From Chloroflexota bacterium (GTDB lineage Bacteria > Chloroflexota > Dehalococcoidia > DSTF01 > JACRBR01), in assembly GCA_028872875.1 (NCBI GenBank), contig JAGWOC010000005.1:4114-68113 (forward strand): a stretch of DNA of 64,000 nucleotides. The letters are read 5' to 3'. A model generated the notes under the pieces. It was not told where the DNA came from. It worked only from the letters and a program-made list of their open reading frames with translations, and ran no database searches. The translations under genes and the position numbers were made by a program. Numbering within the stretch: position 1 is the first letter of the stretch; each line of letters opens with the position of its first letter. Positions 1-29,390 of the stretch are shown here, in pieces.

Positions 1-118
1 TGCAGTACGAAAGCTGAGGGGCACGCGTCGCGACGGACGATGCACGCAGCGCGGCCGCATCGCGGCGCACGGCGATCTTCGTCACTGGCGCTGGCCCGGC
101 TCGCACGCCGCGGGCCGG
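1..118. repeat. Direct repeat copy A (~118 bp), ~94% identical to 9291-9408; may extend left beyond the window edge.
   Basis: Direct alignment of window start with 9291-9408 gives about 112/119 matches with one 1-nt indel. Contains the palindromes CGTCGCGACG and GCGGCCGC. Confidence 0.8.
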
Positions 119-155
119 GGGACGGCGCCCGCCCTCTGGCAGCGGCGGCTCTCGC

Positions 156-1778
156 ATGATGCCGGGACGCCGGTACTATGAGACTGTGCAACAGCTCCGC
201 GCGCGCCGGGCCGCTCGTTCGCTGCCCGCCGGGGTCGTCGTAACGGTCCTTGGCACCGCCGCGCTTACGGCGGTGCTGGCGCCGGTCCACGAACGGGTCG
301 GGCTCCTGAACGAGGGGCTGCTGTTCCTCCTCCTGACGCTGCTGGTCTCGGCCACCTGGGGCCGGGAGGTTGGGCTGTTCGCGGCGGTCCTTGCGAACCT
401 GGCGCTGAACTTCTTCTTTGTGCCGCCGCTTCACCGGTTTACGGTGGCGGCGCCGGCGAACGTGTTCGCGCTCAGCGTCTTTCTCGTCGTCTCGGTCGTT
501 GGCAGCTCGTTGCTCTCGAGTGCCCGGCAGGCGGCAGACGAAGCACGCCGGCGCGAGGCGGAGACGCAGGTGCTGCTCGGGCTGAGCCGCGCTCTCATCG
601 GCCAGACTGAGCCGACGGCTGCGCTCGCCGCGCTGTGCCGGGAAGTGGTCAACGCCTTCGCGGCGACGGGAGCAAGCGTCCTCAGCGCTGGCGCGGGCGG
701 CTTCCAGGTGCTGGCATCTGCGGGGCGGGCGTCGGCAGCGCGCAACGCCGACGCGCAGGAGCGGATCATGGCCGAGCGCGCGGTCGCCCTGGGCGCGATC
801 ACGCGGCTTGGCCAGACGAGCCTTGGGGCGGCGCGCCGGATCCGCATCGTCCTGCCGGCGGGACAGCGCCGGATCAAGGAGATGGGGGATGGCATCGCCT
901 TCGTGCCGCTGCGGATCGCGGACCGGACCGTCGGCGTGCTCCGGCTCGATGGCCCCATCGGCGCCAGCGCGTTTCGCGATCACCCCGACCAACTGCTGAC
1001 GGCGTTCGCCGGTGAGGCCGCTCTGGGCGTACAGCGCGCGGAGCTGTCGCAGGCGGCATCGCACGCCGACGCGCTGAAGCAGGCGGGCGAGATGAAGACC
1101 GCGCTGATGACGTCGATCTCGCACGACCTCAAGACGCCGCTCGCGGGGATCAAGACCGCGGTATCGAGCCTGCTCGATACGTCGGTGCGCTGGTCACCGG
1201 ACGACGTGAACGCGTTCCTCTCGACGATCGACTCGCAGGCAGACCGGCTGGACCGGGTGATCAGCGACATCCTGGACCTCAATCGCATCGAATCCGGCGT
1301 CATCGCTCCCGTCGTCAGGCCAGCCGACGCGCGCCGTTTGCTGGAAGAGGCGGCCGAGCGCACGGCGCTGGTGACGGGCGGCCGGCGGGTGATCATCGAC
1401 GCACCGGAGGAGCTGTACGTCGCAGCGGACCGCTCGCTGCTCCTGCAGGCGCTGGTGAACCTCATCGAGAACGCGGCGAAGTACTCGACTCCTGGCGGGT
1501 CGATCCAGCTTGGGGCGAGGGCGGCGGGCAGGACGGCGGAGCTGTCGGTGGAAGATGAAGGGCCGGGCATCCCCCCGGCCGACTTGCCGCACGTGTTCGA
1601 GCGTTTCTATCGCGCGGCCGAGCAGAGCCGGCGTGTCAAGGGGAGCGGCCTGGGCCTTGCGATCGTGAAGGGGTTCGTGACCCTGTCGGGGGGCTCGGTG
1701 CGGGTGGAAAGCTCGCCGTCCGCGACGCGGTTTGTCATCGAACTGCCGCGGGCGGAGCGCGCGACGGTGAGCGCGTGA
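156..1778 (+). CDS. kdpD: Sensor histidine kinase KdpD, C-terminal portion only (4-TM DUF4118-like region, GAF, HisKA, HATPase_c). It lacks the N-terminal KdpD/Usp domain.
   Basis: 540 aa. N-terminal hydrophobic helices, H-box 'SISHDLKTPL', and G-box motifs 'ENAAKYS' and 'GSGLGLAIV'. Sits directly upstream of kdpE with an overlapping stop/start. Confidence 0.85.
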   Translation: MMPGRRYYETVQQLRARRAARSLPAGVVVTVLGTAALTAVLAPVHERVGLLNEGLLFLLLTLLVSATWGREVGLFAAVLANLALNFFFVPPLHRFTVAAPANVFALSVFLVVSVVGSSLLSSARQAADEARRREAETQVLLGLSRALIGQTEPTAALAALCREVVNAFAATGASVLSAGAGGFQVLASAGRASAARNADAQERIMAERAVALGAITRLGQTSLGAARRIRIVLPAGQRRIKEMGDGIAFVPLRIADRTVGVLRLDGPIGASAFRDHPDQLLTAFAGEAALGVQRAELSQAASHADALKQAGEMKTALMTSISHDLKTPLAGIKTAVSSLLDTSVRWSPDDVNAFLSTIDSQADRLDRVISDILDLNRIESGVIAPVVRPADARRLLEEAAERTALVTGGRRVIIDAPEELYVAADRSLLLQALVNLIENAAKYSTPGGSIQLGARAAGRTAELSVEDEGPGIPPADLPHVFERFYRAAEQSRRVKGSGLGLAIVKGFVTLSGGSVRVESSPSATRFVIELPRAERATVSA

Positions 1779-2473
1779 GCGGGCCGCGCGTGCTGGTGGT
1801 CGATGATGAACCGCAGTTGCGCCGGGCGCTCAAGCGGTCGCTGGAAGGGCACGGCTACGTGGTCGAAGAAGCCGAGGACGGGGCGGGCGGGCTCGCCGCC
1901 GTCCGCAGGTGCAAGCCGGATCTCCTCCTCCTGGATCTCGTCCTTCCGGACATGAGCGGCGTGGACGTCTGCCGGGAGTTGCGGCGCGACTCGGACACGC
2001 CCATCATCGTCCTCTCGGTGCTGGGAGACGAGGCGACCAAGGTGGCAGCCCTGGACGAGGGCGCGGACGACTATCTCACGAAGCCATTTGGTGCGGATGA
2101 GCTGCTGGCGCGGCTCCGCGTCGCGTTACGCCATGGCAGCGCCAGCGGCACCCCGCAGCCGGCCATCGTATCGGGCGACCTGGAAATCGACGTTGAGCGC
2201 CGGTCGGTCTCCATCGCGGGGCGAGCGGTGCACCTGACGCCGACGGAGTACCGTGTGCTCACGCATTTGGCGATGCATGCCGGCAAGGTGCTCACGCATC
2301 CGATGATCCTGCGCGCCGTGTGGGGCGATGCGTACGTGGACGACAGGCATGTCCTGCGCACATACATCAATCAGCTCCGGGCGAAGCTCGGCGACGACCA
2401 CGCCGCGCCGCGGTTCATCGAGACTGAGCCCGGGGTGGGCTACCGGTTCCTGACGCCGGATGCGGAATCCTGA
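1775..2473 (+). CDS. kdpE: OmpR-family response regulator KdpE.
   Basis: 232 aa. Receiver motifs 'VLVVDDE' and 'LLLLDLVLPDMSG', plus a winged-helix C-terminus 'GYRF'. GTG start overlaps the kdpD stop (GTGA). Confidence 0.9.
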   Translation: MSGPRVLVVDDEPQLRRALKRSLEGHGYVVEEAEDGAGGLAAVRRCKPDLLLLDLVLPDMSGVDVCRELRRDSDTPIIVLSVLGDEATKVAALDEGADDYLTKPFGADELLARLRVALRHGSASGTPQPAIVSGDLEIDVERRSVSIAGRAVHLTPTEYRVLTHLAMHAGKVLTHPMILRAVWGDAYVDDRHVLRTYINQLRAKLGDDHAAPRFIETEPGVGYRFLTPDAES

Positions 2474-2505
2474 CAACATTCTGACGGCCCAGCCGCTCGC
2501 GCCTG

Positions 2506-2940
2506 ATGCACTCCTGGCGCGTCGCCCCATACACTGGAACCGTGAACATCCTCCTGGTCGAAGATGAGGCGGCGCTGGCCGACGTCATCGCCCGCAACCT
2601 GCGCGCACGGCAGCACGACACCGCGATCGCCGCGAGCGCCGGCGAGGCGATCGCCGCCATGGAGGAACGCTGGCCCGACGTGCTCATCCTGGACGTCAAT
2701 CTGCCGGACCTGACAGGGTGGGAGATCCTGCGGCGGCTCACGGTGCTCGACCGAAGCAGGCTCCGCGTGATCGTTATCTCCGCGGCGCCGATCTCGCCCA
2801 AGCGGATCGAGGAGTTCCAGCCGCTGCGCATCCTGCAGAAGCCCTTCCCAATCTCGGCGCTCGTCCGCATGCTGAGCGAGGGCGGGCCCTCGCCTGCCGC
2901 GGAGAGCGATGCGGAGGCGCCGTGGTCAGACGAGTCGTGA
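2506..2940 (+). CDS. Single-domain CheY-like response-regulator receiver protein.
   Basis: 144 aa. Has 'ILLVEDE', 'LILDVNLPD' and 'VISAA...QKPF', i.e. all the conserved Asp/Ser/Lys positions of a receiver domain. No output domain. The start could instead be the internal GTG (VNILLVEDE). Confidence 0.75.
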   Translation: MHSWRVAPYTGTVNILLVEDEAALADVIARNLRARQHDTAIAASAGEAIAAMEERWPDVLILDVNLPDLTGWEILRRLTVLDRSRLRVIVISAAPISPKRIEEFQPLRILQKPFPISALVRMLSEGGPSPAAESDAEAPWSDES

Positions 2941-3007
2941 TGACGGGAGCGCGCCACGTGCCCGACGGCGTGCGGCCCGTCCCGGCCGGACCGGGGGATG
3001 CTGCTCG

Positions 3008-3091
3008 ATGAGCGATGTGGTGTTCGTGATCATCAGCGGGCTCTTCTTCGCGCTGACCATGCTGGCGGTCTGGGCGTTCGGGAACGTGTGA
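3008..3091 (+). CDS. 27-aa hydrophobic peptide, a possible second KdpF-like small subunit.
   Basis: ATG at 3008; encodes MSDVVFVIISGLFFALTMLAVWAFGNV followed by TGA. Single TM helix, immediately upstream of the canonical kdpF. It lies inside the track ORF 2909-3091. Confidence 0.4.
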   Translation: MSDVVFVIISGLFFALTMLAVWAFGNV

Positions 3092-3098
3092 GGGACGG

Positions 3099-3182
3099 AT
3101 GGAGAATATCATCCTCTCGGTTGGGGCAAGTATCGTGATGCTGTACCTGATCTTCGCACTGATCCGTCCGGAGCGATTCTAG
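3099..3182 (+). CDS. kdpF: K+-transporting ATPase small subunit KdpF.
   Basis: Not in the ORF track (27 aa). MENIILSVGASIVMLYLIFALIRPERF matches the KdpF pattern (...Y.ALI.PE.F). It ends 5 nt before the kdpA start, and GAGGGA lies just upstream. Confidence 0.65.
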   Translation: MENIILSVGASIVMLYLIFALIRPERF

Positions 3183-3186
3183 GGCG

Positions 3187-4929
3187 ATGACCGTGACGGT
3201 GAGCGGCGTTGTCCAGATCGTCCTCTACTTTGCCGTGGTGCTCGCGCTCACGAAGCCGCTCGGCGCATACATGCAGATGGTCTTCGAGGGGCGGGGGCGA
3301 TTCGCCGGGCGCGTCTTTTCGCCGGTGGAGCGCATCATCTACCGGGTGTTCTTCGTCGACGACACGGCGGAGATGGACTGGAAACGCTACGCGTTCAGCC
3401 TGCTGATCTTCAGCGCGCTGAGCATGTTCGCGGTCTACGCGATCCTGCGGGCGCAGGGACACCTGCCGCTCAACCCCCAGGGTTTCCCGGGCGCGTCGCC
3501 GCACCTGGCGTTCAATACGGCAGCGAGCTTTACGACGAATACGAACTGGCAATCGTACGCCGGCGAATCGACGATGAGCTATCTGTCGCAGATGCTGGCC
3601 CTCACCGTGCAGAATTTCCTCTCAGCCGCGGTCGGGATCGTCGTCGTCATCGTGCTGATTCGCGGGTTCGTCCGGCGGACGACCACGGACCTGGGCAACT
3701 TCTGGGTCGACCTCACGCGTGCGATCCTCTGGGTCCTCCTGCCGATGTCGTTGGTGCTCGCGCTCATCCTCGTCTCGCAGGGCGTCATCCAGAACTTCCA
3801 CGGCTACACGCAGCTCACGACGCTGGAGGGCGCGAAGCAGGTGCTCGCGATGGGGCCGGCGGCTTCGCAGGTCGCGATCAAGCAGCTCGGGACGAATGGC
3901 GGCGGCTTTTTCAACGCCAATTCGGCGACGCCGTTCGAGAACCCGACGCCGTTTTCGAACTTCATCGAAGCCGCGGCGATCCTCCTGATCCCGGCGGGCC
4001 TGACCTACACGTTCGGCAAGATGGTGGGTGATACGCGCCAGGGCTGGGCCATCTTTGCCGCGATGTCGGTGCTCTTCCTGGCGGGCGCCTTCTTCACGTA
4101 CGGCGCCGAGCAGGCGGGCAACCCGACGCTTGCGCGCCTGGGCGTTGACCAGTCGTACCACACGGGCCAGCAGGCCTCGGCCGGGGGCAACCTCGAGGGC
4201 AAGGAGGTGCGCTTCGGCATCGCGGACTCGTCGATATGGGCGGTCGCGACGACGGACGCGTCGAACGGTTCTGTGAACTCGATGCTCGACAGCTACACAC
4301 CGCTCGGCGGGCTGATCCCGTTGTTCAACATGGAGCTTGGTGAGGTCGTGTTCGGCGGCGTTGGTTCCGGCCTCTATGGCATGCTGGTGTTCGCCATCAT
4401 CTCGGTCTTCATCGCGGGCCTGATGATCGGCCGGACGCCGGAATACTTGGGCAAGAAGATCGGACCGAAGGAGATGAAGCTGGCGGCGATCTATTTCCTG
4501 ATCACGTCTTCGATGATGCTCCTTCTGACGGCGGTGGCAGTGTCCGTGCGGCAGGGGCGCGCCGGGCCGCTGAACGCGGGCGCGCACGGGTTTACCGAGA
4601 TCCTCTACGCCTTTTCTTCGGCAGCGGGTAACAACGGGTCGGCGTTCGCAGGGCTGAACGCGAACACGTCCTTCTACGACACGTCGCTGGGCATTTCGAT
4701 GCTGGTCGCCAGGTTCTTGCCGATCGTCGCGATCCTCGCGCTGGCGGGGTCGCTTGCCCGGAAGAAGAAGGTGCCCGAGACGGCGGCGACGCTCCCGACG
4801 AACTCGGCGCTTTTTGTCGGCTTCCTGGTCGGCGTCGTGATCATCGTCGGCGGCCTGACGTTCTTCCCCGCGCTGGCGCTGGGGCCCATCGCCGAGCACT
4901 TCCTCGTCCACGCGGGCGTGCTCTCGTAG
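3187..4929 (+). CDS. kdpA: Potassium-transporting ATPase subunit A.
   Basis: 580 aa, polytopic. KdpA-typical selectivity-filter-like segments ('[18 protein letters not shown]', 'NNGSAF'). Position in the kdpFABC order. Confidence 0.95.
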
Positions 4930-4940
4930 GGAGGGAGAGG

Positions 4941-7019
4941 ATGCGGGAGCAGGTGTCACGGGAAGAAGAGACGGCGCACAAATCAGAGATCGCAAAGCTG
5001 CGGAAGTCACGCACGTCGATCTGGAACTGGCCGATCATCGGGCGGGCGACGATCGACGCCTGCAAGAAGTTGAACCCGCTGCACCTGCTGGGCAACCCGG
5101 TCATGCTCGTCGTCGAACTGGGCGCCGGCGTGACGACCGTCCTGTTCGTGCAGGAACTGCTCGGAGGCCGCGCGGGGCCGAAGTTCTTCACCGGCGCGGT
5201 ATCAGTCTGGTTGTGGTTCACCGTGCTGTTCGCCAACTTCGCGGAGGCGATGGCGGAGGGGCGCGGGAAGGCGCAGGCGAACACGCTGCGCTCGATGAAG
5301 CATGACACGATGGCCAAGCGCGAGCGTGACGGCAGGATCGAAGAAGTCGTATCGTCGGACCTGCGTGCGGGGGACATCGTGCGGGTCGACGCGGGTGACG
5401 CGATCCCTGGCGACGGCGATGTGATCGAGGGCGTCGCATACGTCAGCGAGGCGGCGATCACGGGCGAGTCCGCGCCCGTGCTCAAGGAGCCGGGGACGGA
5501 CATCCGCAGTTCCGTCACAGGAGGCACGATCATCGTCAGCGACTGGCTGCGGATCCGCATCTCGGCTAACCCGGGCGAGACGTTTCTCGACCGCATGATC
5601 GCACTCGTCGAGGGTGCGGAGCGCCAGAAGACGCCGAACGAGATCGCGCTGAACATCCTCCTCGCGGCATTCACGATCATCTTCCTGCTGGCGGTCGGCA
5701 CCGTGCGTCCGTTCGTCGCGTACCTGGGCGGCACGGTGACGACCACCGCGCTCGTCGCGCTGCTCGTCTGCCTGATCCCGACGACAATCGGCGGGCTGCT
5801 GTCCGCGATCGGCATCGCCGGCATGGACCGTCTGGTGCAGCGCAACGTGCTGGCGATGTCCGGCAAGGCTGTCGAGACGGCGGGGGATATCGACACGCTC
5901 TTGCTCGACAAGACGGGTACGATCACCTTCGGGAACCGCCTGGCGAGCGAGTTCATCCCGGTAGGACGGCACAGCGAGCGCGAGATCGCGTTGGCCGCGC
6001 TCCAGTCGTCGCTCGCTGACGAGACCCCCGAGGGGAAGTCGATCGTCGAGCTGGCGCAACGGAGGGGCTACGCCGGCGCAACCCTGAAGGCTGGCACCGA
6101 GCTCATCCCGTTTCGCGCGGAGACGCGGATGAGCGGCATCGAGGTGGACGGCCGCCGCATCATGAAGGGGGCCGTGGACGCGGTCACGCGCCTCGCCGTG
6201 GATGTGCCGCCAGACGTGGAGCGCGCGGCGACCCGCATCGCGATGGAGGGCGGCACGCCGCTGGCCGTCGCCGATGACGGCGAGATCCTGGGCATCATCT
6301 ACCTGAAGGACACGGTCAAACCCGGCATCCGCGCCAAGTTCGAGGAGATGCGGCGCGCCGGGATCCGCACCATCATGATCACGGGCGACAACAAGCTGAC
6401 GGCTGCGACGATCGCGGCCGAGGCCGGCGTCGATGACTTCGTCGCCGAGGCAAAGCCCGAGGACAAGATGCAAATCATACGGGACGAGCAGGCGCAGGGC
6501 CGCCTCGTCGCGATGACGGGTGACGGGACCAACGACGCGCCGGCCTTGGCGCAGGCCGATGTGGGCGTGGCGATGAACAGCGGCACCGCGGCGGCGAAGG
6601 AAGCGGCCAATATGGTCGACCTCGACTCCGACCCGACGAAGCTGGTCGAGGTGGTGGCGGTCGGCAAGCAGATGCTGATGACGCGGGGGGCGCTGACCAC
6701 GTTCAGCATCGCGAACGACGTGTCGAAATATTTCGCCATCCTCCCGGCGATCTTCGTAGGCATCTATCCGCAGCTCGCCAAGATGAACGTCATGCGGCTC
6801 TCGACGCCACAGAGTGCGATCCTGTCCGCGGTGATCTTCAACGCCCTGATCATCATCGCGCTTGTGCCGCTCGCGCTGCGCGGGGTGACGTACCGCGCCG
6901 CGCCCGCCGGGCAGATCCTCCGCGGAAATCTGCTCATCTATGGCGCCGGCGGGATCATCGCGCCATTTGTCGGCATCAAGCTCATCGACCTGCTGCTGGT
7001 GCTGTTGCACCTGAACTGA
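4941..7019 (+). CDS. kdpB: Potassium-transporting ATPase subunit B (P-type ATPase).
   Basis: 692 aa. Contains the P-type ATPase motifs 'DKTGTIT', 'MITGDN' and '[13 protein letters not shown]'. Strong RBS AGGGAGGGAGAGG. Confidence 0.95.
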
Positions 7020-7023
7020 GAGG

Positions 7024-7629
7024 ATGGCCGTGCTTCGGAACACGTACAGAGATCTGCGGACGGCGGTGATCGCATTCGTTGCGTTCAGCGTGCTCCTGGG
7101 TCTGGCATATCCGTACGCGATCACCGGCGTGGCGCAGGTGGTGTTCCACCGGCAGGCGAACGGCAGTCTGATCACGCGGGGCGGGCAGGCGGTCGGATCC
7201 GCGCTGGTAGGGCAGAACTTCAGCGCACCGCAGTACTTCCACCCGCGCCCTTCCGCGGCGGGGGCGGACGGCTATGACGCCACGGCGTCCGGCGGCTCGA
7301 ACCTCGGCCCGTCGAGCAAGGCGCTGGCGACACGCGTGGCAGAGAGCGTCGCACGTGTGCGCCAGGAGGACGGCCTGGCGCCCGGCGCGAAGGTGCCGGT
7401 GGATGCTGTGACCGCTTCGGGCAGTGGCCTGGACCCGCACATTTCGCCCGCGTACGCGGCGTTGCAGGTGGCACGCGTGGCGCGCGCCCGCTCAGTCGCG
7501 CCCGGCGAGGTCCAAAGGCTGGTCGGCCAGTACACGGACGGCTCGACGTTCGGCGTCCTCGGCGAGCCGCGGGTCAACGTGCTGGAACTCAACCTCGCGC
7601 TCGACCGGGCCTTCGGGGCGGCGCCGTAA
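7024..7629 (+). CDS. kdpC: Potassium-transporting ATPase subunit C.
   Basis: 201 aa with an N-terminal TM. KdpC-like 'SGSGLDPHISP' motif. Follows kdpB by 4 nt. Confidence 0.9.
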   Translation: MAVLRNTYRDLRTAVIAFVAFSVLLGLAYPYAITGVAQVVFHRQANGSLITRGGQAVGSALVGQNFSAPQYFHPRPSAAGADGYDATASGGSNLGPSSKALATRVAESVARVRQEDGLAPGAKVPVDAVTASGSGLDPHISPAYAALQVARVARARSVAPGEVQRLVGQYTDGSTFGVLGEPRVNVLELNLALDRAFGAAP

Positions 7630-7642
7630 CGGTGGTGCGGAG

Positions 7643-8050
7643 ATGGCCAGCCGGGAGGGGGCGGCTCAGATGGACGACGTCGTGATCGTGCACACCGACG
7701 AGCGGACGCTGATGCGGCTCACCGCGACGGTCAGCAGGACGCGGTTCTCCGCCACCGCTGTACGATCGCTCCGTCCCCTGCAGTCCGCGCGGCAGCTCCT
7801 GCCGCTACGGCCCGCGGCCATGGTGGTCGCACTCGATGGCCACGCAAACGTCACGGATGTGCGCGAACTGCTCGCGAGCGGGAGGCCGACGAGGTTCGTG
7901 TTCGTGGTGCCCGCGATGCCGCCCCCGCCGGCCGTCGCCCGACTCGTCAAGCGCCATGGATCGACGATCATCGGCGCCGACGAGGCGGCAATCGTACTCG
8001 TAGCGACGCTCATCGCGCTGCTTGCGGCGCATTCCGTCGGTGCCCCATGA
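7643..8050 (+). CDS. Hypothetical protein, possibly a degenerate receiver-like fold.
   Basis: 135 aa between kdpC and the N-terminal kdpD gene. Its stop overlaps the next start (ATGA), which supports translational coupling. Pattern 'VVIVHTDE...MVVALDGH...RFVFVV'. Confidence 0.45.
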   Translation: MASREGAAQMDDVVIVHTDERTLMRLTATVSRTRFSATAVRSLRPLQSARQLLPLRPAAMVVALDGHANVTDVRELLASGRPTRFVFVVPAMPPPPAVARLVKRHGSTIIGADEAAIVLVATLIALLAAHSVGAP

Positions 8051-9174
8051 GCGACGCCGGCCGGCCCGACCCTGACGCGCTCCCCGCAGATGTGAAGCGG
8101 GACGATCGCACGCGCCGTGGCACGCTGCGCCTCTACCTCGGTGCGTTCGCCGGCATCGGCAAGACCTATGCCATGCTCGACGAAGCCCAGCGCCGCAAGA
8201 GCTACGGGGAGGACGTCGTCGTCGGTCTCGTCGAGACGCACGGCCGGAAGCAGACCGAGGCGATGCTTCCGGGGCTCGAAGTGATCCCGCGCAAGCGCAT
8301 CGCATACCGCGGCGTCACGCTCGAGGAGATGGATGTCGAAGCGATCCTGCGTCGGAGGCCGGCGGTCTGCCTCGTGGACGAGCTGGCGCACACGAATGCG
8401 CCCGGTTCCGAACGGGCGAAGCGCTACGAGGATGTCGAGGTCCTGCTGGATGCGGGCATTCACGTCGTATCGACGGTTAACATCCAGCACCTGGAGAGCC
8501 TCAACGACGTCGTCCAGTCGCTGACTGGCATCCGGGTGCGCGAGACGATTCCGGATTCTGTGGTCGATGCGGCAGACGAACTGATCCTCATTGACCTTTC
8601 GCCCGAGGCGGCGCAAGCACGCATGCGGCACGGGAACATCTACCCACCGGCGCAGGCAACGGCCGCGCTCCAGAGCTTCTTCCGCCGCGAGAATCTCGCC
8701 GCACTCCGCGAGCTCGCCCTCCGGCGCACCGCGCAGGAAGTGGACGAGCAGCTCGATACCTACATGCGCGAGGTCAGCGACCGCCGGCCGGAGGTCGAAG
8801 AGCGCGTCCTGGTACTCATCGATGAGGCGCCGATGTCGCGCACGCTGATCCGCCGGGGCTGGCGCATCGCGCAGGGGATGCGCGCGGAGTTGCTGGTCGC
8901 GTACCTGAAGCGCGAGCTGAGTGAGGAGGGAGAACGCGAGCTGGGGCGGACCCTCGAACTCGCGGAGGACCTGAATGCGCGTGTCATCGCCATGCAGGGC
9001 GAAGACCGTGTACAGGCGCTCACCGCGTTCGTGCGGGCCGAGCGCGTCAACCACGTCGTGCTTGCGCACAGGAAACGTGGCGGAATCGAACGCCTGCTGC
9101 ATCGGTCACTCGCGGACGCACTGATGCTCGCGTCGCCTGACCTTGACGTGCATCTGGTCGCGGCGCGCGACTGA
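8047..9174 (+). CDS. kdpD: KdpD N-terminal sensor domain (KdpD domain plus Usp domain) encoded as a separate polypeptide.
   Basis: 375 aa. Has 'RGTLRLYLGAFAGIGKTYAML' (P-loop-like KdpD N-domain) and 'VVSTVNIQHLESLNDVV', followed by a Usp-like C-terminal half ('RVLVLIDEAP...HVVLAHRKRGG'). No TM or kinase domain. Confidence 0.85.
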   Translation: MSDAGRPDPDALPADVKRDDRTRRGTLRLYLGAFAGIGKTYAMLDEAQRRKSYGEDVVVGLVETHGRKQTEAMLPGLEVIPRKRIAYRGVTLEEMDVEAILRRRPAVCLVDELAHTNAPGSERAKRYEDVEVLLDAGIHVVSTVNIQHLESLNDVVQSLTGIRVRETIPDSVVDAADELILIDLSPEAAQARMRHGNIYPPAQATAALQSFFRRENLAALRELALRRTAQEVDEQLDTYMREVSDRRPEVEERVLVLIDEAPMSRTLIRRGWRIAQGMRAELLVAYLKRELSEEGERELGRTLELAEDLNARVIAMQGEDRVQALTAFVRAERVNHVVLAHRKRGGIERLLHRSLADALMLASPDLDVHLVAARD

Positions 9175-9290
9175 TGGCCAGAGCGGCCCGCGGGGCGATG
9201 GCAGACGCGGCATCTCCGCGCGGCAATCCCGAACCATGCCGCCGAGGGCCGCCCCGGCGCTGGCGGACGTGCTCACCGGCTACCTCGACG

Positions 9291-9408
9291 TGCAGTACGA
9301 AAGCTGAGGGCACGCGTCGCGACGGACGATGCCCGCAGCGCGGCCGCATTGCGGCGCATGGCGATCTTCGTCACTGGCACTGGCCCGGCTCACACGCCGC
9401 GGGCCCGG
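9291..9408. repeat. Direct repeat copy B; it overlaps the last 12 codons of the M23 peptidase gene.
   Basis: About 94% identical to 1-118. The peptidase stop codon (9371-9373, minus strand) lies inside the repeat. Confidence 0.8.
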
Positions 9409-10609
9409 GCAGGTAATCGAGCGGGTTCTCGCGGACGCCGTTATCGATCACCTCGAAGTGTAAGTGACGCCCGGTCGAGTACCCCGTGGACCCGATGATG
9501 CCGAGTGTCTGGCCCTGCGCCACGTGCTGGCCCTGCGTCACCGCGATCGAGCTGAGGTGCCCGTACAGCGTCTCGATGCCGCCCGGGCTCATCAGGATGA
9601 CGTGCAGTCCGTAGGAGCAGCAGGCGTTGCCGCCGGCGAAGATCACGGTGCCGCTGGTCGCGGCGACGATTGGCGCGCCGGCAAGGTTGTAGCCGTCGAT
9701 GTCGATCCCGAGCGGGTGCCAGGGGCAGTAGCAGCTTGAGATCGGGCCGACCACGGGCCAGATCAGGCCCTTGCCAGGGTGCGCGCTGAACGGACCGCCC
9801 GGGGGCGCGCCGGAGGCGGCGCCCGAGCTACCGCCAGGTGCGGCCGCGGTCTGGGCGTCCGGCACGGGTGTCGTGGTGGGCGCCGGGGCCGCGACCGGCG
9901 CGGCGACGGGCGCGGGGATCGTGGCGCCCGGCACGAAGAGGAGCTGCGTCTCCTTGATCGCATCGGGTGACGTGATGTGGTTGGGCGCGAACGACGTGAC
10001 GGCCGAGACATCGACGTTGTAGCGCGCCGCGATGTCGCTCAGCGTCTCGCCGTACCGCACTTCGTGGAGGATGCCGTTGCCGGCGGGGATGATGATGGAC
10101 TGCCCCAGTGCCAGAACGTTCGAGTCCTGGATCTCCGCGTTGTTCGCGATGATGTACTGCGTGTCGATCCCGAAGCGGGCGGCGATGGCGCTGAGCGTGT
10201 CGCCTGCCTGCACCTGGTAGACCTGGTACGGCGGCAGGTCCAGCGTCGCCACGCTGGCCGCGCGCACGGCCGCGCCCTCGCCCGGCGCCGAAGACACGGG
10301 CGAGGGTGCGGCCGTCGGCGAAACGCTGAGCGAAGCCAGTTGCGCCGCGACCTGCCGCGCCATCGCTGGCACCGGCTCCACCGCGGGTGAGGTCCTGTTC
10401 TCGACGTCCGCGCGGACCACCGTGTCCTGCACGACGGGGATGCTCGAGCCGACGCCGGGCAGCGACAGCCCGGTGACGGGTTCGGCAAAGGCGTGCGCCC
10501 GCCCCGCCAGCACGGTGCCGGAGATCGTCGCGTACGTGACAGAGAGAAGGATGATCGCCAGCACCAGGCCGTGGATGTAGGGCCTGCGCCTCAGGCGCAC
10601 CGCGTGCAT
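9371..10609 (-). CDS. LysM-domain M23-family metallo-endopeptidase (peptidoglycan hydrolase).
   Basis: 412 aa. N-terminal TM, two LysM repeats ('YQVQAGDTLSAIAARFG', 'HEVRYGETLSDIAARYN'), and a C-terminal M23 signature 'GYSTGRHLHFEV'. Confidence 0.9.
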   Translation of the reverse strand: MHAVRLRRRPYIHGLVLAIILLSVTYATISGTVLAGRAHAFAEPVTGLSLPGVGSSIPVVQDTVVRADVENRTSPAVEPVPAMARQVAAQLASLSVSPTAAPSPVSSAPGEGAAVRAASVATLDLPPYQVYQVQAGDTLSAIAARFGIDTQYIIANNAEIQDSNVLALGQSIIIPAGNGILHEVRYGETLSDIAARYNVDVSAVTSFAPNHITSPDAIKETQLLFVPGATIPAPVAAPVAAPAPTTTPVPDAQTAAAPGGSSGAASGAPPGGPFSAHPGKGLIWPVVGPISSCYCPWHPLGIDIDGYNLAGAPIVAATSGTVIFAGGNACCSYGLHVILMSPGGIETLYGHLSSIAVTQGQHVAQGQTLGIIGSTGYSTGRHLHFEVIDNGVRENPLDYLPGPAACEPGQCQ

Positions 10610-11195
10610 GCGCGCGCGCGGCGCCGTCCTGTCTTGATGCAGTCGCGCTCGCTGATCCCGGAACGAGCGCGGGCTGAGCGTGCCCCTGATGCTCCCCTGC
10701 TCCTACTCGCGGTCGCGCCCCGCCACCGCCCCCCGCAGCGCGAAGCACACCGCGTCCGCGTGCTCCGTGCTGCCACCGCAGCATTCGGCGGCTATTGTAC
10801 CCCGGCGTCCACCCGGCCGCGTAGCGTGTACCGTGAGGAATTTCACAAGATCGCCGAGGGATCTCCGGGACCAAAGCTACGCCAGAAGCGCTTCGCGGTG
10901 GCGGCGGCGGCACGAGGCGCACGTCGCCGCGTCCTTCGGGCTGGAGCCGTGGAAGACGCGCCGTGACGAGCCGGCGTGGACGTGCTGCCGACGCTGACGG
11001 TCGTCGATGGCACGTGCAGTCACGGGCGGGACGGCGTCGAACGCGTCATCGAGCAGGCGCGGGCGTACGCGCGGCGCTGGCTGTAGGGGCGCGACGGTCC
11101 CGGGCGCGCGCCACATCGCGGCTCGCGCGCCCCGGCGGGCGGGCATACAATCGTCGCGATCCAGCAGTTGCGAGTAAGGACGAGGAGGAGAGCCC

Positions 11196-12149
11196 GTGCC
11201 CAGCGTCCCGACCGTCACCGGCCCCGCCGACACCAGCGCCCTCGGCTTCACGCTCATGCACGAGCACGTGTTCGTGCTCTCCGAGGGCGTGGTCGCGAAC
11301 TTCCCGCGGCTCTGGCCGCGCGAGCGGCGGATGGGCGAGGCCGTCGCGGCGCTGCGTGAGGCGAAGGCGCACGGCGTCGAGACGGTCGTCGACCTGACGG
11401 TGCTGGGCCTGGGGCGCGACGTCGCTACCGTGCGCGAGATCGCGCGGCAGGCGGGCATCCGGGTGATTGCGGCGACCGGGCTGTACACGTACGATGCGCT
11501 GCCGCACTACTTCGAGTCGCGCAGCCCCGACCACATGGCCGACCTCTTCGTGCAGGACATCGAAGAAGGGATCCAGGGGACGGACATCCGCGCGGGCATC
11601 CTGAAGTGTGCAACCGACCAGCAGGGCGTGACGACAGGCGTGGAGAAGGTGCTGCGCGCGGTCGCGCGCGCGCACCGGCGCACCGGCGTGCCGATCTCGA
11701 CGCACACGCACGCGGCCAGCGAGCAGGGGCTGCGCCAGCAGGAGATCTTCGAGCAGGAGGGCGTCGACCTGCGCCGCGTGGTCATCGGCCACAGCGGCGA
11801 CAGCGAAGACATCGCCTACCTTCAGAAGCTGATGGCGCGCGGCTCCTACATCGGCATGGACCGCTTCGGCATCGACATGCTGCTACCGACGGACAAGCGC
11901 GTCGCGACGATCGCCAAGCTGTGCGCGCTCGGGCACGCGGACCGGATGGTGCTGTCGCACGACGCGAGCTGCCACATCGATTGGTTCGACGAGGCGATGA
12001 TCCGGCAGGCGGTGCCGCGGTGGAACTTCCTGCACATCCCGGACGACGTGATCCCGGCGCTCAAGGCCGCGGGGGTGAGCGACGACCAGATCCGGCTGAT
12101 GACGGTGGACAACCCGCGGCGCATCTTCGAGGCGCAGGGGCCGTACTGA
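11196..12149 (+). CDS. Phosphotriesterase-family (PTE/Php, amidohydrolase superfamily) metal-dependent hydrolase.
   Basis: 317 aa. Has the 'GFTLMHEHV' H-x-H motif, and the ...HTHA... and ...SHDASCHID... metal ligands. GTG start with GGAGGAG 7 nt upstream. Confidence 0.85.
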   Translation: MPSVPTVTGPADTSALGFTLMHEHVFVLSEGVVANFPRLWPRERRMGEAVAALREAKAHGVETVVDLTVLGLGRDVATVREIARQAGIRVIAATGLYTYDALPHYFESRSPDHMADLFVQDIEEGIQGTDIRAGILKCATDQQGVTTGVEKVLRAVARAHRRTGVPISTHTHAASEQGLRQQEIFEQEGVDLRRVVIGHSGDSEDIAYLQKLMARGSYIGMDRFGIDMLLPTDKRVATIAKLCALGHADRMVLSHDASCHIDWFDEAMIRQAVPRWNFLHIPDDVIPALKAAGVSDDQIRLMTVDNPRRIFEAQGPY

Positions 12150-12781: not shown

Positions 12782-13171
12782 TCACGCGGCGGCGAGGAAG
12801 CCCATCTCGCCGATGGCGGCCGCGTCCTCCGGGAAGTACAGCGTGGTGATGTGCCAGACGCCGGCGGCGGCGGTGATCCGCTCGCGGATCCGGAAGAGGG
12901 CGTCGTGCATGCCGGCGGGGCCGGTTTCGACGAGCAGCACCACGAGCATGTCCTCGTACGGCCGGGCCACCACGTCGGAGGTGCGGATGGCGGACCGCAG
13001 CACCTCGACCGCGCGCGCGGCCTTCACGCGGACCGGCAGGCCATCCGACGCCGGCAACGCCTCGCACACGAGCACCCCGAACGGGTGGCCGTAGCGGCGG
13101 GCGCGATCCAGCTCTTCGCGGATGCGGACGCGCAGTTGCGTGAGGTCAAGGAGCCGCGGGTCCCGCTCCAT
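12782..13171 (-). CDS. Stand-alone degenerate GGDEF-like domain protein (GGDEF motif replaced).
   Basis: 129 aa. 'RARRYGHPFGVLVCE' resembles the GGDEF-domain 'RxxRYxxPxSLxxxDxD' segment. 'ARPYEDMLVVLL' sits where 'RYGGEEFxxLL' would be. GGAGG RBS 8 nt upstream. Confidence 0.5.
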   Translation of the reverse strand: MERDPRLLDLTQLRVRIREELDRARRYGHPFGVLVCEALPASDGLPVRVKAARAVEVLRSAIRTSDVVARPYEDMLVVLLVETGPAGMHDALFRIRERITAAAGVWHITTLYFPEDAAAIGEMGFLAAA

Positions 13172-13409
13172 GCCAGTCCTCCGTAGAGATATCGAACCGG
13201 CAGGGCCTCGCCTGCACCCCCCAGCGGGGCAATGCGGCGGGAAGCGTCATATCGAGGCACGATGGCCATGCATAACCGTCGTGGCGCGCTGGGCGGCCTC
13301 GCACGCGGCGGGAGTCCGTCCAACGGGGCCTGTAGCGTGTGGGTCCGGCTTCACGGGACGCACAGCCGAGGGCGGCTGCGCTCCACGCCAATGGCCCCTT
13401 CGCACTACG

Positions 13410-13904
13410 CTAGCGCAGGCGCCCGGCGGCGATGAACGACGCGATCCCCAGGGCGATGAGGCCGAAGAGGTCGGCGCGGAGGTCGCGCACCGCCCAGACG
13501 CCGGTCAGGAACAGCAGCGCGACGCGGACCAGGTAGGCGGTCACCACGCCCCCGACCGCGGCGGCCTGGAGGGGCGGCCCGGCCTTGCGGTTCGTGCCGA
13601 GCGACACGATCTCGCCGACGGCGAAGCCCGCCACGAAGCCGACGATCGCGCCGAAGAAGACGGAGGTGAGCGGGTTGAACAGCCACCAGGCGATGCCGAC
13701 GCTGATCCCAGCGCCGAGCGCCGAGCCGGCGGCCCGCGCCAGCATCGCACCGCCGATGTTGTACGTGGGGATGCGGCGCACGTTCGCGCACTCGCGGCAA
13801 CGCGCGCCGACGGGGGTCTGGACAAGGCAGCGGGGGCAGATGGGCTTGCCGCAGCGGCTGCACGTCAGTTCGGTTTCGACGGAGGGATGTGTCGCGCACT
13901 GCAT
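13410..13904 (-). CDS. Zinc-ribbon (C4 x2) N-terminal domain membrane protein.
   Basis: 164 aa. N-terminal 'CSRCGKPICPRC...CRECANV', followed by ~4 hydrophobic helices. Confidence 0.55.
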   Translation of the reverse strand: MQCATHPSVETELTCSRCGKPICPRCLVQTPVGARCRECANVRRIPTYNIGGAMLARAAGSALGAGISVGIAWWLFNPLTSVFFGAIVGFVAGFAVGEIVSLGTNRKAGPPLQAAAVGGVVTAYLVRVALLFLTGVWAVRDLRADLFGLIALGIASFIAAGRLR

Positions 13905-13932
13905 CAGGCGACCGTGAGGGCGGCGCGCGCGA

Positions 13933-14787
13933 TCAACGCACCAGATCCCGGTTCGGCAGGCGCGCGGCAGCTTCGAGGAAGCGCTCGATCGCGGCGTCGG
14001 GCAGGGGGATGTCGCCGGGGAGCGGTTCGTCGTTGCCGAAGATGCCGTGGTAGTCGCTGCCGCCGAGCGGCAGGAGCCCGTGGCGCTCCGCGGTCTGCCG
14101 CAGCCGCTCGATGGTCTCGGGCGGGTAGTCCTTGTAGTAGACCTCCATGGCGGCCATACCCGCCTCGTTCAACTCCGCGAGCAGCGCGTCAAGGCCCTGC
14201 AGGTCGGCGGGGTGCGCGAGGCACGCCATGCCGCCACGCTCGACGATGCAGCGCACGGACTCGGCCGGCGTCATCTTGTCGCGCTCCACGTACGCCGGGC
14301 CGTTGCGGCCGATCCAGCGGTCGAAGGCGTCGGCGACCTTCGGGACGTAGCCGGCTTCGACGAGCGCCTGCGCGATGTGCGGGCGCCCGACGGACGCGTC
14401 GCCAGCGATCTGCTTCACGCGCTCCCACTCGATCATGATGCCCATGCCGCGCAGCTTCTCGACGATGCCGTAGCCGCGGTCGACGCGGCCGGCACGCAGC
14501 CGCCGCAGCATCGCCTGGAGCTCGCCGTCGTCCGGGCTCAGGTAGAGGCCGAGCATGTGCACTTCGGCGCCTTCGATGTCCGTGCCCATCTCGACGCCGG
14601 GAATCAGCGTGTAGCCGGTGTGCCGCCCGGCCGCCGCGCGCGCCTCGGCGATGCCCTCGGTGGAGTCGTGGTCGGTGAGGGCGTGGTAGACGACGCCCTG
14701 GGAGGCGGCGAGGTCGACGAGCGCGGCGGGCGACAGCACGCCGTCGGAGGCGGTGCTGTGTGTGTGAAAGTCGCCCTTACTCGCCAT
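13933..14787 (-). CDS. PHP-domain (polymerase/histidinol phosphatase) family phosphoesterase.
   Basis: 284 aa. N-terminal 'DFHTHSTASDG' and '...LTDHDS...' PHP metal-binding motifs. Its start overlaps the ymdB stop by 11 nt. Confidence 0.85.
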   Translation of the reverse strand: MASKGDFHTHSTASDGVLSPAALVDLAASQGVVYHALTDHDSTEGIAEARAAAGRHTGYTLIPGVEMGTDIEGAEVHMLGLYLSPDDGELQAMLRRLRAGRVDRGYGIVEKLRGMGIMIEWERVKQIAGDASVGRPHIAQALVEAGYVPKVADAFDRWIGRNGPAYVERDKMTPAESVRCIVERGGMACLAHPADLQGLDALLAELNEAGMAAMEVYYKDYPPETIERLRQTAERHGLLPLGGSDYHGIFGNDEPLPGDIPLPDAAIERFLEAAARLPNRDLVR

Positions 14788-19148: not shown

Positions 19149-20468
19149 ATGCAGTCGACGAACGCCAGGCGCGGCGTGATCACGGTGGGGCAGGGCCCGC
19201 GGCGGCACCGCAGGGCACGCCGCATTGCCATCGCCGCGGCCGTGGTGTTCCTGATGCTGGCAGCGGCGCTGCACTGGCGCAACGCGCTGGCGGTGCGGGG
19301 CTCCGACCTGAGCCGGAGCGTGATCGGCGCGGACAACACGGTGCGCATCGAAGCGATCTACTTCCGGCTGAACGACCGGTTCAAGCGGCTGAAGTACAGC
19401 ATCTTCGGCGGCGGCACGGGCAATCCGATCAGCCCTGCGGCGCAACGCCACACGGCGGCGTCCGCCGCCGCATCCACGAGCGCGGCGCCGCGGCACGCGT
19501 CCGCAGCGGCTGCGGCCGGTGCGGCTGGTGCGGCGGCGGCACCGACGGCAGCGCTGCCCGACGCGGCGCCCGCGCCCATCGCCCCCATCTATCCGCACAC
19601 CCTCTCGCAGGGGGAGGGGACGTGGACGACGATCCAGCTCGCGGGTGGGCTGCGCACGCCGTACACGACGCAGCACCCCATCTACACGACGTTCATCCGG
19701 CCTGACCCGCAGCGGCCCTACGCGACGGTGACGCTGGCGGAGTTCAGCGCGGCGAGCATCTCGCTGCATCCGGTGGCGGGCACGAGCGAGCCCGGCGTGT
19801 CGACGGGCATCTCGGGGACGGGGGCGATCCCGTCGAGCGTGCTCGACAGCGGCGCGCTGCTGGCGGCGTTCAACGGCGGCTTCCGCTGGCAGGACGGCCA
19901 CTACGGGATGATCGTCGACGGCAAGACGGTCGCGCCGATGGCGGACGGTCTGGCGACGCTGGCGACGTATCGCGACGGGTCGTTCCGCATCGGCACGTGG
20001 GGCAAGGATCTGGGCCCGTCTCCGGACCTGGTCTCGGCGCGCCAGAACGCGATCCTGCTCATCGATCACGGCGCGATCTCCTCGAAGATTGACGCGGGCG
20101 GCCACACGTGGGGCTTCATCTGGTACACGAGCCGGAACTTCTTCACGACGCGCTCCGCCATCGGCGTGACGGCAGACGGGCGGTTCGTGTTCGCCGGCGG
20201 CTACGAGACGAACGCGCGGACGCTGGCGACGGCGCTGCGCCAGGCGGGCGTGCAGACGGCGATGCAGCTCGATGTGAACAAGCCGTACACGCAGATGGCG
20301 CTGTACGAGGCGCCGCATTCCTACATTCAGGGCTTCAACCTGACGGACTGGATGCACCAGTCCCCCGACGGCTTCTTCGCCGGCCGTGCGCGCGACTTCG
20401 TGTACATGACCATCCGGGGCCAAACGCAGGCGGCGCCGACGGCTTCGCCCCGCGGCACGGCACCGTGA
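19149..20468 (+). CDS. Secreted/anchored protein with a C-terminal phosphodiester-glycosidase (DUF2233/NAGPA-like) domain.
   Basis: 439 aa. N-terminal signal anchor. C-terminal 'FNGGFRWQDGHYGMIVDGK...AIGVTADGRFVFAGG...MQLDVNKPYTQMAL' matches the DUF2233 pattern. RBS GGTGAGGAGG. Paralog of 27152-28405. Confidence 0.8.
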   Translation: MQSTNARRGVITVGQGPRRHRRARRIAIAAAVVFLMLAAALHWRNALAVRGSDLSRSVIGADNTVRIEAIYFRLNDRFKRLKYSIFGGGTGNPISPAAQRHTAASAAASTSAAPRHASAAAAAGAAGAAAAPTAALPDAAPAPIAPIYPHTLSQGEGTWTTIQLAGGLRTPYTTQHPIYTTFIRPDPQRPYATVTLAEFSAASISLHPVAGTSEPGVSTGISGTGAIPSSVLDSGALLAAFNGGFRWQDGHYGMIVDGKTVAPMADGLATLATYRDGSFRIGTWGKDLGPSPDLVSARQNAILLIDHGAISSKIDAGGHTWGFIWYTSRNFFTTRSAIGVTADGRFVFAGGYETNARTLATALRQAGVQTAMQLDVNKPYTQMALYEAPHSYIQGFNLTDWMHQSPDGFFAGRARDFVYMTIRGQTQAAPTASPRGTAP

Positions 20469-29242: not shown

Positions 29243-29390
29243 TAGGGGCGCCGCTTGCCGCGCCCGCAGAGGATAGGGGCGCCGCTTGCCGCGCCCGCAG
29301 AGGGTAGGGGCGCCGCTTGCCGCGCCCGCAGAGGGTAGGGGCGCCGCTTGCCGCGCCCGCAGAGGATTGGGGCGCCGCTTGCCGCGCCCA
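29243..29390. repeat. Tandem repeat: about 4.8 copies of a 31-bp unit, each forming a GGGCGC-N8-GCGCCC hairpin.
   Basis: Unit TAGGGGCGCCGCTTGCCGCGCCCGCAGAGG[A/G] with period exactly 31. TAGGGG starts at 29243, 29274, 29305, 29336, and 29367 (the last as TTGGGG). No intervening unique spacers. Confidence 0.9.

Follow-up and report, generated by a model that had tools for sequence, protein, structure and literature searches.

The nine-gene kdp block of the window (the whole 64-kb stretch of DNA that was analysed) lies between two direct repeats which are probably its own duplicated target site: the block would have been inserted between a PLP-dependent decarboxylase gene (A) and a LysM/M23 peptidase gene (P) in such a way that each of them kept a complete 3' end. 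The repeated unit is referred to below as U and the inserted block as X; the coordinates of all features are collected in Table 1. As judged from the comparison with the closest relative, this U-kdp-U arrangement is an old insertion, common to two species.

Table 1. Features of the kdp locus and of its borders, in window coordinates.
Feature	Position	Strand	Remarks
End of PLP-dependent decarboxylase gene (A), last 5 codons and stop (..QYES, stop)	1..17	+	Reads tg CAG TAC GAA AGC TGA
Left copy, intergenic spacer of the former convergent decarboxylase/peptidase junction	18..81	.	95% identical to 9308-9370
Peptidase 3'-end relic, stop and 12 codons, joined to no peptidase gene	82..120	-	Reverse complement reads PRPAACEPGQRQ, stop
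Left junction/leader between duplicated target and kdp block	121..155	.	Homology to L088 begins at window 161
Inserted kdp block X, nine genes	156..9174	+	Pfam and NCBIfam matches
kdpD kinase chain	156-1778	+	DUF4118/GAF/HisKA/HATPase; matches E. coli KdpD 400-885
kdpE	1775-2473	+	Pfam/NCBIfam
Single-domain receiver	2506-2940	+	Pfam/NCBIfam
kdpF	3099-3182	+	Pfam/NCBIfam
kdpA	3187-4929	+	Pfam/NCBIfam
kdpB	4941-7019	+	Pfam/NCBIfam
kdpC	7024-7629	+	Pfam/NCBIfam
orf135 (135-aa ORF)	7643-8050	+	Between kdpC and kdpD sensor chain
kdpD sensor chain (KdpD+Usp)	8047-9174	+	Matches E. coli KdpD 4-374
Right junction: ~65 nt, then last remains of upstream decarboxylase relic	9175..9262	.	Orthologous to L081 11129-11215
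Decarboxylase 3'-end relic, joined to no decarboxylase gene	9263..9307	+	Reads ADVLTGYLDVQYES, stop; matches decarboxylase C-termini of P0241-P0252, L092/L093
Right copy, intergenic spacer	9308..9370	.	Aligned to left spacer 18-81
Intact LysM/M23 peptidase gene (P)	9371..10609	-	Pfam LysM and Peptidase_M23; last 39 nt (9371-9409) are the right repeat end

The repeat unit and the flanking genes

The initial annotation had placed direct repeats of about 94% identity at 1-118 and 9291-9408. Alignment confirms them, with limits at 1-120 and 9291-9409, 113/120 identical bases (94%) and one 1-nt indel; the BLAST E value for the pair within the window is 6e-46. The right copy contains the last 12 codons and the stop of P, and the left copy a duplicated gene 3' end, both as had been claimed: the native peptidase end at 9371-9409 reads PGPAACEPGQCQ before the stop, while its counterpart on the left, PRPAACEPGQRQ, is a relic of the peptidase tail that is now useless. 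It had also been pointed out that the left repeat abuts the edge of the window; this copy is indeed truncated there, since window 1-17 is the end of the same decarboxylase gene that is seen at 9263-9307, and in a relative the repeat is longer and runs into the decarboxylase 3' end. The right copy reaches leftward to at least 9263, and the length of the repeat in the source genome is at least ~147 bp.

The closest relative, GCA_040960765.1 (L081), is 93% identical at the nucleotide level, has the same arrangement, and is collinear with the window from position 80 to 9260 and beyond. It carries an intact gene for a 473-aa PLP-dependent decarboxylase (507-1928) whose 3' end is identical to window 1-17, and its repeat enters this gene: 1794-1963 aligns to 11261-11430 at 92% identity, and a second piece, 1452-1517, to 11196-11261 at 88%. 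Because the repeat of the relative runs into the decarboxylase, U can be recognized as the junction of two convergent genes, in which ~63 nt of spacer separate the 3' end of the decarboxylase gene from the 12 final codons and the stop of the peptidase. In both copies the order (3' end of A, spacer, 3' end of P) is that of an uninterrupted convergent pair. In the left copy the decarboxylase end is intact and the peptidase end is a relic; in the right copy the peptidase end is intact and the decarboxylase relic is eroded by deletions. Overall, both repeats reproduce a single, contiguous stretch of the earlier chromosome, the flanking genes are intact (the peptidase in the window, the decarboxylase in L081), and the redundant halves are relics.

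These relics bear deletions and amino-acid changes. That of the decarboxylase is discernible in L081 from about 11190 onward, and is both longer and less eroded there than in the window, which lacks the equivalent of L081 11216-11345; a further deletion of 130 nt in the relic is what one expects of decaying DNA. Pieces of the L081 relic align also to the decarboxylase genes of two other relatives (L092 and L093), and the decarboxylase C-terminus found upstream of kdp in relatives is an exact match to 9263-9307. From these relatives we infer that an intact decarboxylase gene lies upstream of window position 1 in the source genome. One decarboxylase homologue, P0244 (MDE3094762.1), has 97% identity and is encoded on a contig of 78 kb. 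On the peptidase side, the tail GPxxCEPGQCQ is native in homologues, including P0122, whose locus (L087) was read and has no kdp genes nearby; homologues at 94% and 78% identity have the same C-terminal tail.

A dispersed repeat family of the REP or MITE kind, or an assembly artefact, could in principle bracket kdp by chance, and the position of the left copy at the window edge is what would be seen when assemblies break in repeats; however, we regard this explanation as extremely improbable. A check of the copy number of the ~118-bp unit by BLAST over the whole 64 kb yields two copies and no third, which does not support a high-copy family, and among 93 fetched loci copies occur solely at the two orthologous positions. 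At either end the unit consists of a gene 3' end in which coding sequence can be recognized, and it has no palindromic or structured character: its spacer folds no better than shuffled sequences and matches no Rfam family. Furthermore, U-X-U is found in independent assemblies, namely a 661-kb NCBI MAG contig and three contigs from ENA, and the right junction is confirmed by a Logan contig.

Some other features were searched for at this locus. Scans revealed no promoter-like sites, and three terminator-like sites that are not above the level of shuffled sequences, none of them in the repeat. An insertion sequence or composite transposon was considered and rejected, as there is no transposase domain, inverted repeats are absent at the ends, and the duplication measures hundreds of base pairs.

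The left spacer is 95% identical to the right copy of the same genome, 81-86% identical to the right copy of L081, and 68% identical to its L081 orthologue. Since it is closer to its own right copy than to the orthologue, gene conversion is suggested, which has apparently evened out some of the differences between the two copies in the source genome; the mismatches behind this signal are 6/118 versus 16/118, a difference of few sites.

The kdp block and its genomic contexts

Pfam and NCBIfam matches bear out the earlier description of the DNA between the repeats as exclusively kdp-related (kinase part of kdpD, kdpE, an extra receiver, kdpF-like genes, kdpA/B/C, a hypothetical gene, and the sensor part of kdpD): no ORF in 121-9290 is anything but a kdp gene or orf135. 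The two KdpD chains jointly tile E. coli KdpD, and for the sensor chain 120/120 of the best homologues are ~375 aa long. A split KdpD is already described for Chloroflexota, as well as for Acidobacteriota; in these systems the gene of a KdpD/Usp chain follows the pump genes, and a TM/GAF/DHp-CA histidine kinase forms a chain of its own, alongside KdpE (PMC11018627). The layout in the window, KdpFABC with a downstream KdpD/Usp chain, a separate TM/GAF/HisKA/HATPase chain and KdpE, is exactly the same, and nothing essential is different; in the window, kdpF is immediately preceded by the genes of the kinase chain, KdpE and a further receiver, and kdpC is separated from the KdpD/Usp chain by a conserved ORF of 135 aa. 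The order with the kinase half first and the sensor half last might be taken for a permutation produced by opening a circular kdpFABC-D-E at kdpD. We rejected such a permutation in this event, since relatives at 71-92% identity have this order, and a split KdpD, in other contexts, and both are known in Chloroflexota.

The sequence has a G+C content of ~70%. With respect to the contrast in G+C content raised in the initial annotation, X is lowest, at 67.7%, slightly below any other 9-kb stretch of the window (69.0-72.3%), but the contrast is slight and may come from the composition of membrane proteins.

The nine-gene block is present, in the same order, in L081 and in three further loci of related Dehalococcoidia (L088, L090, L091), where it occupies three other contexts and has no flanking repeats. 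The block of L088 (GCA_054639515.1) is 92% identical at the nucleotide level and its homology is confined to window 161-9196; to the left of 161 no clear similarity remains. No integrase was found adjoining the block in L088, L090 or L091, and in L081 and L088 no integrase or recombinase gene was found inside the block or next to it; the sole integrase-like gene seen, in L091, is 6.6 kb away and Xer-like by its Pfam domains.

These observations bear on the reading offered in the initial annotation, that the repeats are the attL and attR of a decayed island, formed by site-specific integration into a gene terminus; a tyrosine or serine recombinase would then have acted, its gene since lost. Islands of this sort, such as e14 or phage 21 at icd, typically lie between direct repeats that include a duplicated gene 3' end; as in the window, this 3' end borders the inserted DNA, so that the target gene stays functional. 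The presence of the kdp block in differing contexts among related genomes is also in agreement with an island. Despite this resemblance, we consider site-specific integration very unlikely. The absence of an integrase inside the block, remarked upon from the start, holds true, but so does the absence of phage or island genes: the nine genes between the repeats are all kdp and extend up to the ends, with no room for anything else, phage matches are nil, and plasmid matches are to kdpB only. The duplication of ~0.6 kb, made of the ends of two convergent genes, is much larger than an att core, and the block has no att-like core. Neither inverted nor direct repeats above the shuffle level are present at the ends of the block, and where the block occurs elsewhere it has neither flanking repeats nor an adjoining integrase. 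Thus, a recombinase gene in or near the element and a short conserved core at every insertion, both features of integrase islands, are missing here.

An empty site, in which A and P are adjacent and kdp is absent, was found neither among L087, L092 and L093 nor in JGI metagenomes. Relatives with A at 85-87% amino-acid identity have different downstream neighbours, and in the relative whose P is 78% identical the downstream gene encodes a patatin. Scanning metagenomes twice with patterns of U, validated on the known copies, produced no match. The initial annotation had envisaged an ancient, fixed structure, in the form of relatives with the identical arrangement and no empty site, as grounds for rejecting its reading; this applies in part, as U-kdp-U is common to a relative at ~93% nucleotide identity and no empty site was found.

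Proposed history of the insertion

The results can be interpreted as follows. In the ancestor, A on the plus strand and P on the minus strand would have stood tail to tail, ~63 nt apart, when a 9-kb kdp module typical of the lineage entered their junction. The insertion would have copied U, at least ~0.6 kb long (some 480 nt from the end of A and 39-41 nt from the end of P, with the spacer between them), to both flanks of the insert, and the redundant halves (left, the tail of P; right, that of A) would then have turned into pseudogene relics. The event would predate the split between the source genome and GCA_040960765.1, the A relic shrinking afterwards by deletions. This history agrees with the other possibility mentioned in the initial annotation, that the repeats are the boundaries of a segmental insertion: the kdp block does end at the duplicated junction copies.

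The structure and, in all appearance, the history can be read from the sequences, while for the mechanism we infer a process in which no dedicated recombinase would be involved. Two routes are about equally likely. In the first, a hypothetical circular DNA carrying kdp joined to a copy of U would have integrated by a Campbell-type single crossover. Such integration likewise duplicates a contiguous chromosomal segment, one copy ending up as a direct repeat on each side of the insert, and leaves both flanking genes intact; its repeats can recombine, and the hint of gene conversion fits this property. Different from the known cases, the window contains no circular form, plasmid backbone, or replication or transfer genes, and the event here is old, with repeats that are decaying. 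In the second route, kdp would have been copied in by template switching during replication or repair (MMBIR-like), or by the fill-in of a staggered break, with re-entry 0.6 kb upstream. Template switching by FoSTeS/MMBIR gives rise to templated insertions with flanking duplication, and the locus resembles its products in having a copied-in segment bracketed by a duplication of the re-entry interval, and short filler at the junctions, where ~35 nt (left) and ~65 nt (right) could be assigned to neither U nor X. If forced to choose we would pick the Campbell-type route, because it yields exactly U-X-U and because the U copies show signs of recombining.

The same final structure could also result from two events, a tandem duplication of the junction (U-U) followed by insertion of kdp exactly at the U|U joint. 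Small tandem duplications are frequent in bacteria, this one would be neutral because both genes stay intact, and filler at both junctions fits an illegitimate insertion. Two independent events at the same nucleotide positions are required, however, and U-U without kdp is seen in no relative; we therefore hold this course of events to be unlikely. There is a similarly small chance that the kdp module is an integrase-less mobile cassette of these Dehalococcoidia, which leaves and enters chromosomes as a circle by recombination of long duplicated target segments; this reading is entertained because the module ends are conserved in four contexts and because there are signs of recombination between the U copies. 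If it were true, U-kdp-U would be reversible, and related strains could gain or lose the potassium pump or hand it on to one another.

Meaning of the duplication

On the reading that we favour, a duplicated target site, the repeats are the kind of scar that genome rearrangements ordinarily leave; they do not mark a mobile element equipped with machinery of its own. For annotation, it follows that the small ORFs and partial genes on either border of the block are relics and not genes. The locus offers a clean, datable case of the relocation of an entire operon in uncultured Dehalococcoidia with no mobile-element genes taking part; the long target duplication left behind is now eroding. It is no new kind of system, but it is of relevance to the movement of kdp modules in this clade.

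Repeats and genes of the kdp block

The kdp block is bordered by direct repeats (window 1-120 versus 9291-9409) that are identical at 113 of 120 bases, with one single-base indel (BLAST E-value for the pair inside the window = 6e-46), and no third copy is present in the 64 kb. The whole arrangement recurs in three ENA contigs from different samples, and its right junction is confirmed by a Logan contig, which rules out an assembly artefact; the notion that a dispersed repeat or an artefact lies behind the pair deserves almost no credence. The initial annotation had placed repeats at nearly these positions, named the kdp genes between them, and located the stop and last 12 codons of the LysM/M23 peptidase gene inside the right copy; within what the window could show, its description was correct, and the feature is real.

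Features of the kdp locus and its borders (window positions, nt)
Feature	Position	Remarks
Decarboxylase 3' terminus (functional gene)	1-17	read as the end of the real gene
Histidine-kinase chain	156-1778	DUF4118, GAF, HisKA, HATPase; aligns to E. coli KdpD 400-885
KdpE	1775-2473	
Lone receiver	2506-2940	
KdpF	3099-3182	
KdpA, KdpB, KdpC	3187-7629	
135-aa ORF, no family assigned	7643-8050	
KdpD+Usp chain	8047-9174	aligns to E. coli KdpD 4-374
Decarboxylase C-terminus relic	9263-9307	reads ADVLTGYLDVQYES-stop, the exact decarboxylase C-terminus
LysM/M23 peptidase gene	9371-10609	minus strand

In Chloroflexota, a KdpD/Usp chain encoded separately, downstream of the pump genes, together with a TM/GAF/DHp-CA kinase chain, is described as common (PMC11018627), and each of the 120 best sensor-chain homologues is ~375 aa long; the split of KdpD and the gene order are thus typical of the lineage, and not a product of insertion at this locus. 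The 135-aa ORF, which has no Pfam or NCBIfam match, keeps its position between kdpC and the KdpD/Usp gene in all the related kdp blocks examined (L081, L088, L090, L091) and overlaps the start of the next gene by 4 nt; it may encode an unrecognised kdp accessory protein. A short hydrophobic frame at 3007-3091 (MSDVVFVIISGLFFALTMLAVWAFGNV), just upstream of kdpF, may represent a second KdpF-like peptide. The G+C content of the block is 67.7%, versus 69.0-72.3% across all the window's other 9-kb stretches, a small difference that could be compositional in origin.

The same nine genes, in the same order, occur in three other contexts, none of which (0/3) has flanking repeats around the block. In L088 (GCA_054639515.1) the 92% nucleotide identity is confined to window positions 161 to 9196, and to the right of the block there is a ParE-type toxin gene but no peptidase; in L091 the block has an H+-pyrophosphatase gene on one side and MaoC/FAS1_DH genes on the other, and in L090 it is flanked by an IMPDH gene and by an ABC transporter operon. 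On the 3.6-Mb contig L090 (2198-9000), the gene calls for the kdpD kinase chain, kdpE, kdpA and kdpB are all broken into fragments, a sign either that a long-read assembly introduced frameshift errors or that the block is decaying.

Elsewhere in the window, a 31-nt unit (TAGGGGCGCCGCTTGCCGCGCCCGCAGAGGA) is tandemly repeated at 29243-29389 (4.7 copies, 97% identity). Two 1.1-kb stretches, 19299-20416 and 27299-28401, are 74% identical and probably are paralogous genes; weaker paralogous pairs (54208-54388/57112-57292 and 55712-55879/58589-58757) lie within two neighbouring genes of ~950 aa.

The repeated unit in a close relative

The nearest of the relatives fetched, L081 (GCA_040960765.1, contig of 661 kb), shares the window's arrangement and aligns with it collinearly at ~93% nucleotide identity. 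Upstream of its kdp block come an FGGY kinase gene and then, next to the block, an intact gene for a PLP-dependent decarboxylase of 473 aa (Pyridoxal_deC), whose best NCBIfam match, tyrosine decarboxylase MfnA, falls below the cut-off for that family. The direct repeat extends further here than in the window (1794-1963 versus 11261-11430 at 92%, with a further piece, 1452-1517 versus 11196-11261, at 88%). The left members fall within the decarboxylase gene, the right ones in the stretch bounded by the stop codons of KdpD+Usp and of the peptidase; in two relatives further removed, the decarboxylase genes also align to the right-hand pieces. Taken with the two decarboxylase termini in the window, these matches indicate that the repeated unit, U, is the point where two convergent genes meet tail to tail: decarboxylase 3' end, spacer of ~63 nt, peptidase 3' end. 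The left copy pairs the working decarboxylase end with a useless peptidase tail (PRPAACEPGQRQ-stop, versus PGPAACEPGQCQ-stop in the working peptidase), and the right copy a useless decarboxylase tail with the working peptidase end. The motif GPxxCEPGQCQ is found in the tails of several peptidase homologues, and at the one such locus read (L087, encoding P0122) there is no kdp nearby, which makes the tail a native part of the peptidase.

The duplicated target was originally ~0.6 kb long (L081 ~1446 to 2048). Internal losses have removed 276 nt from the decarboxylase relic in both genomes and, in the window, another 130 nt (L081 11216-11345 is absent), a pattern of decay typical of dead DNA. The left spacer of L081 (1964-2007) is unlike all other copies (14-nt and 3-nt insertions, 63-71% identity), and the gene ends flanking it are conserved; either local rapid change or replacement in that lineage would account for this. 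Beside the peptidase, L081 has an extra ~1.6 kb (12981-14549) with a 531-aa gene that lacks a Pfam match, of which the window retains only a remnant of ~100 nt in the region 10890-10980 (10905-11006 versus L081 13669-13765 at 83%); it adds a second insertion/deletion to the differences in this neighbourhood.

Origin of the duplication

Since both copies run from the decarboxylase end through the spacer to the peptidase end, the only simple ancestor of the present U-kdp-U structure is an uninterrupted convergent decarboxylase/peptidase pair. Tandem duplication of an existing decarboxylase-kdp-peptidase segment was rejected, because its joint would have the peptidase tail first and the decarboxylase tail second; a two-step history, in which tandem duplication came first and insertion followed, we regard as unlikely. 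The junction regions are orthologous between the window and L081, and a single event therefore predates the split of the two species. The two spacers of the window's genome are closer to each other (95% identical) than to their L081 orthologues (81% for the right, 68% for the left), which suggests, over few sites, gene conversion between the two copies of U.

The initial annotation had offered either attL/attR sites or a segmental insertion; the latter is upheld and the former is not. A decayed integrase island, to which direct repeats at a gene end might point, appears quite improbable: no integrase or transposase was found, inverted or direct repeats at the block ends do not rise above shuffle level, comparison of the block with phages gave no match, and plasmid matches are limited to similarity of the kdpB gene. 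The search of Rfam yielded no family, and the spacer fold is not notable. The empty site proposed as a check, a decarboxylase/peptidase pair without kdp, was not found among the relatives examined and in JGI metagenomes. Relatives whose decarboxylase is 85-87% identical in amino acids keep the FGGY-decarboxylase order with other genes downstream, the homology ending exactly at the stop codon; it ends again at the stop codon in a relative with the peptidase at 78%, where a patatin gene lies downstream. Patterns spanning U, which do recover the known copies, gave 0 matches when JGI metagenomes were scanned twice.

The locus shows a ~0.6-kb duplicated target, intact flanking genes, decaying relics, the traces of one old event, and no mobile-element genes, and duplicative insertion as a whole is in our judgement the probable explanation. 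As to the route, a circle carrying kdp joined to a copy of U could have entered by a Campbell-type single crossover; a template switch during replication or repair, or fill-in of a staggered break, could instead have copied kdp in, with re-entry 0.6 kb upstream. We rate the two about equally, with a slight preference for the Campbell-type route. Short stretches of ~35 nt and ~65 nt at the two junctions, assignable to neither U nor the block, are compatible with an illegitimate joining step in either route. Rather than a new kind of element, U-kdp-U is a tidy scar of operon relocation in uncultured Dehalococcoidia.
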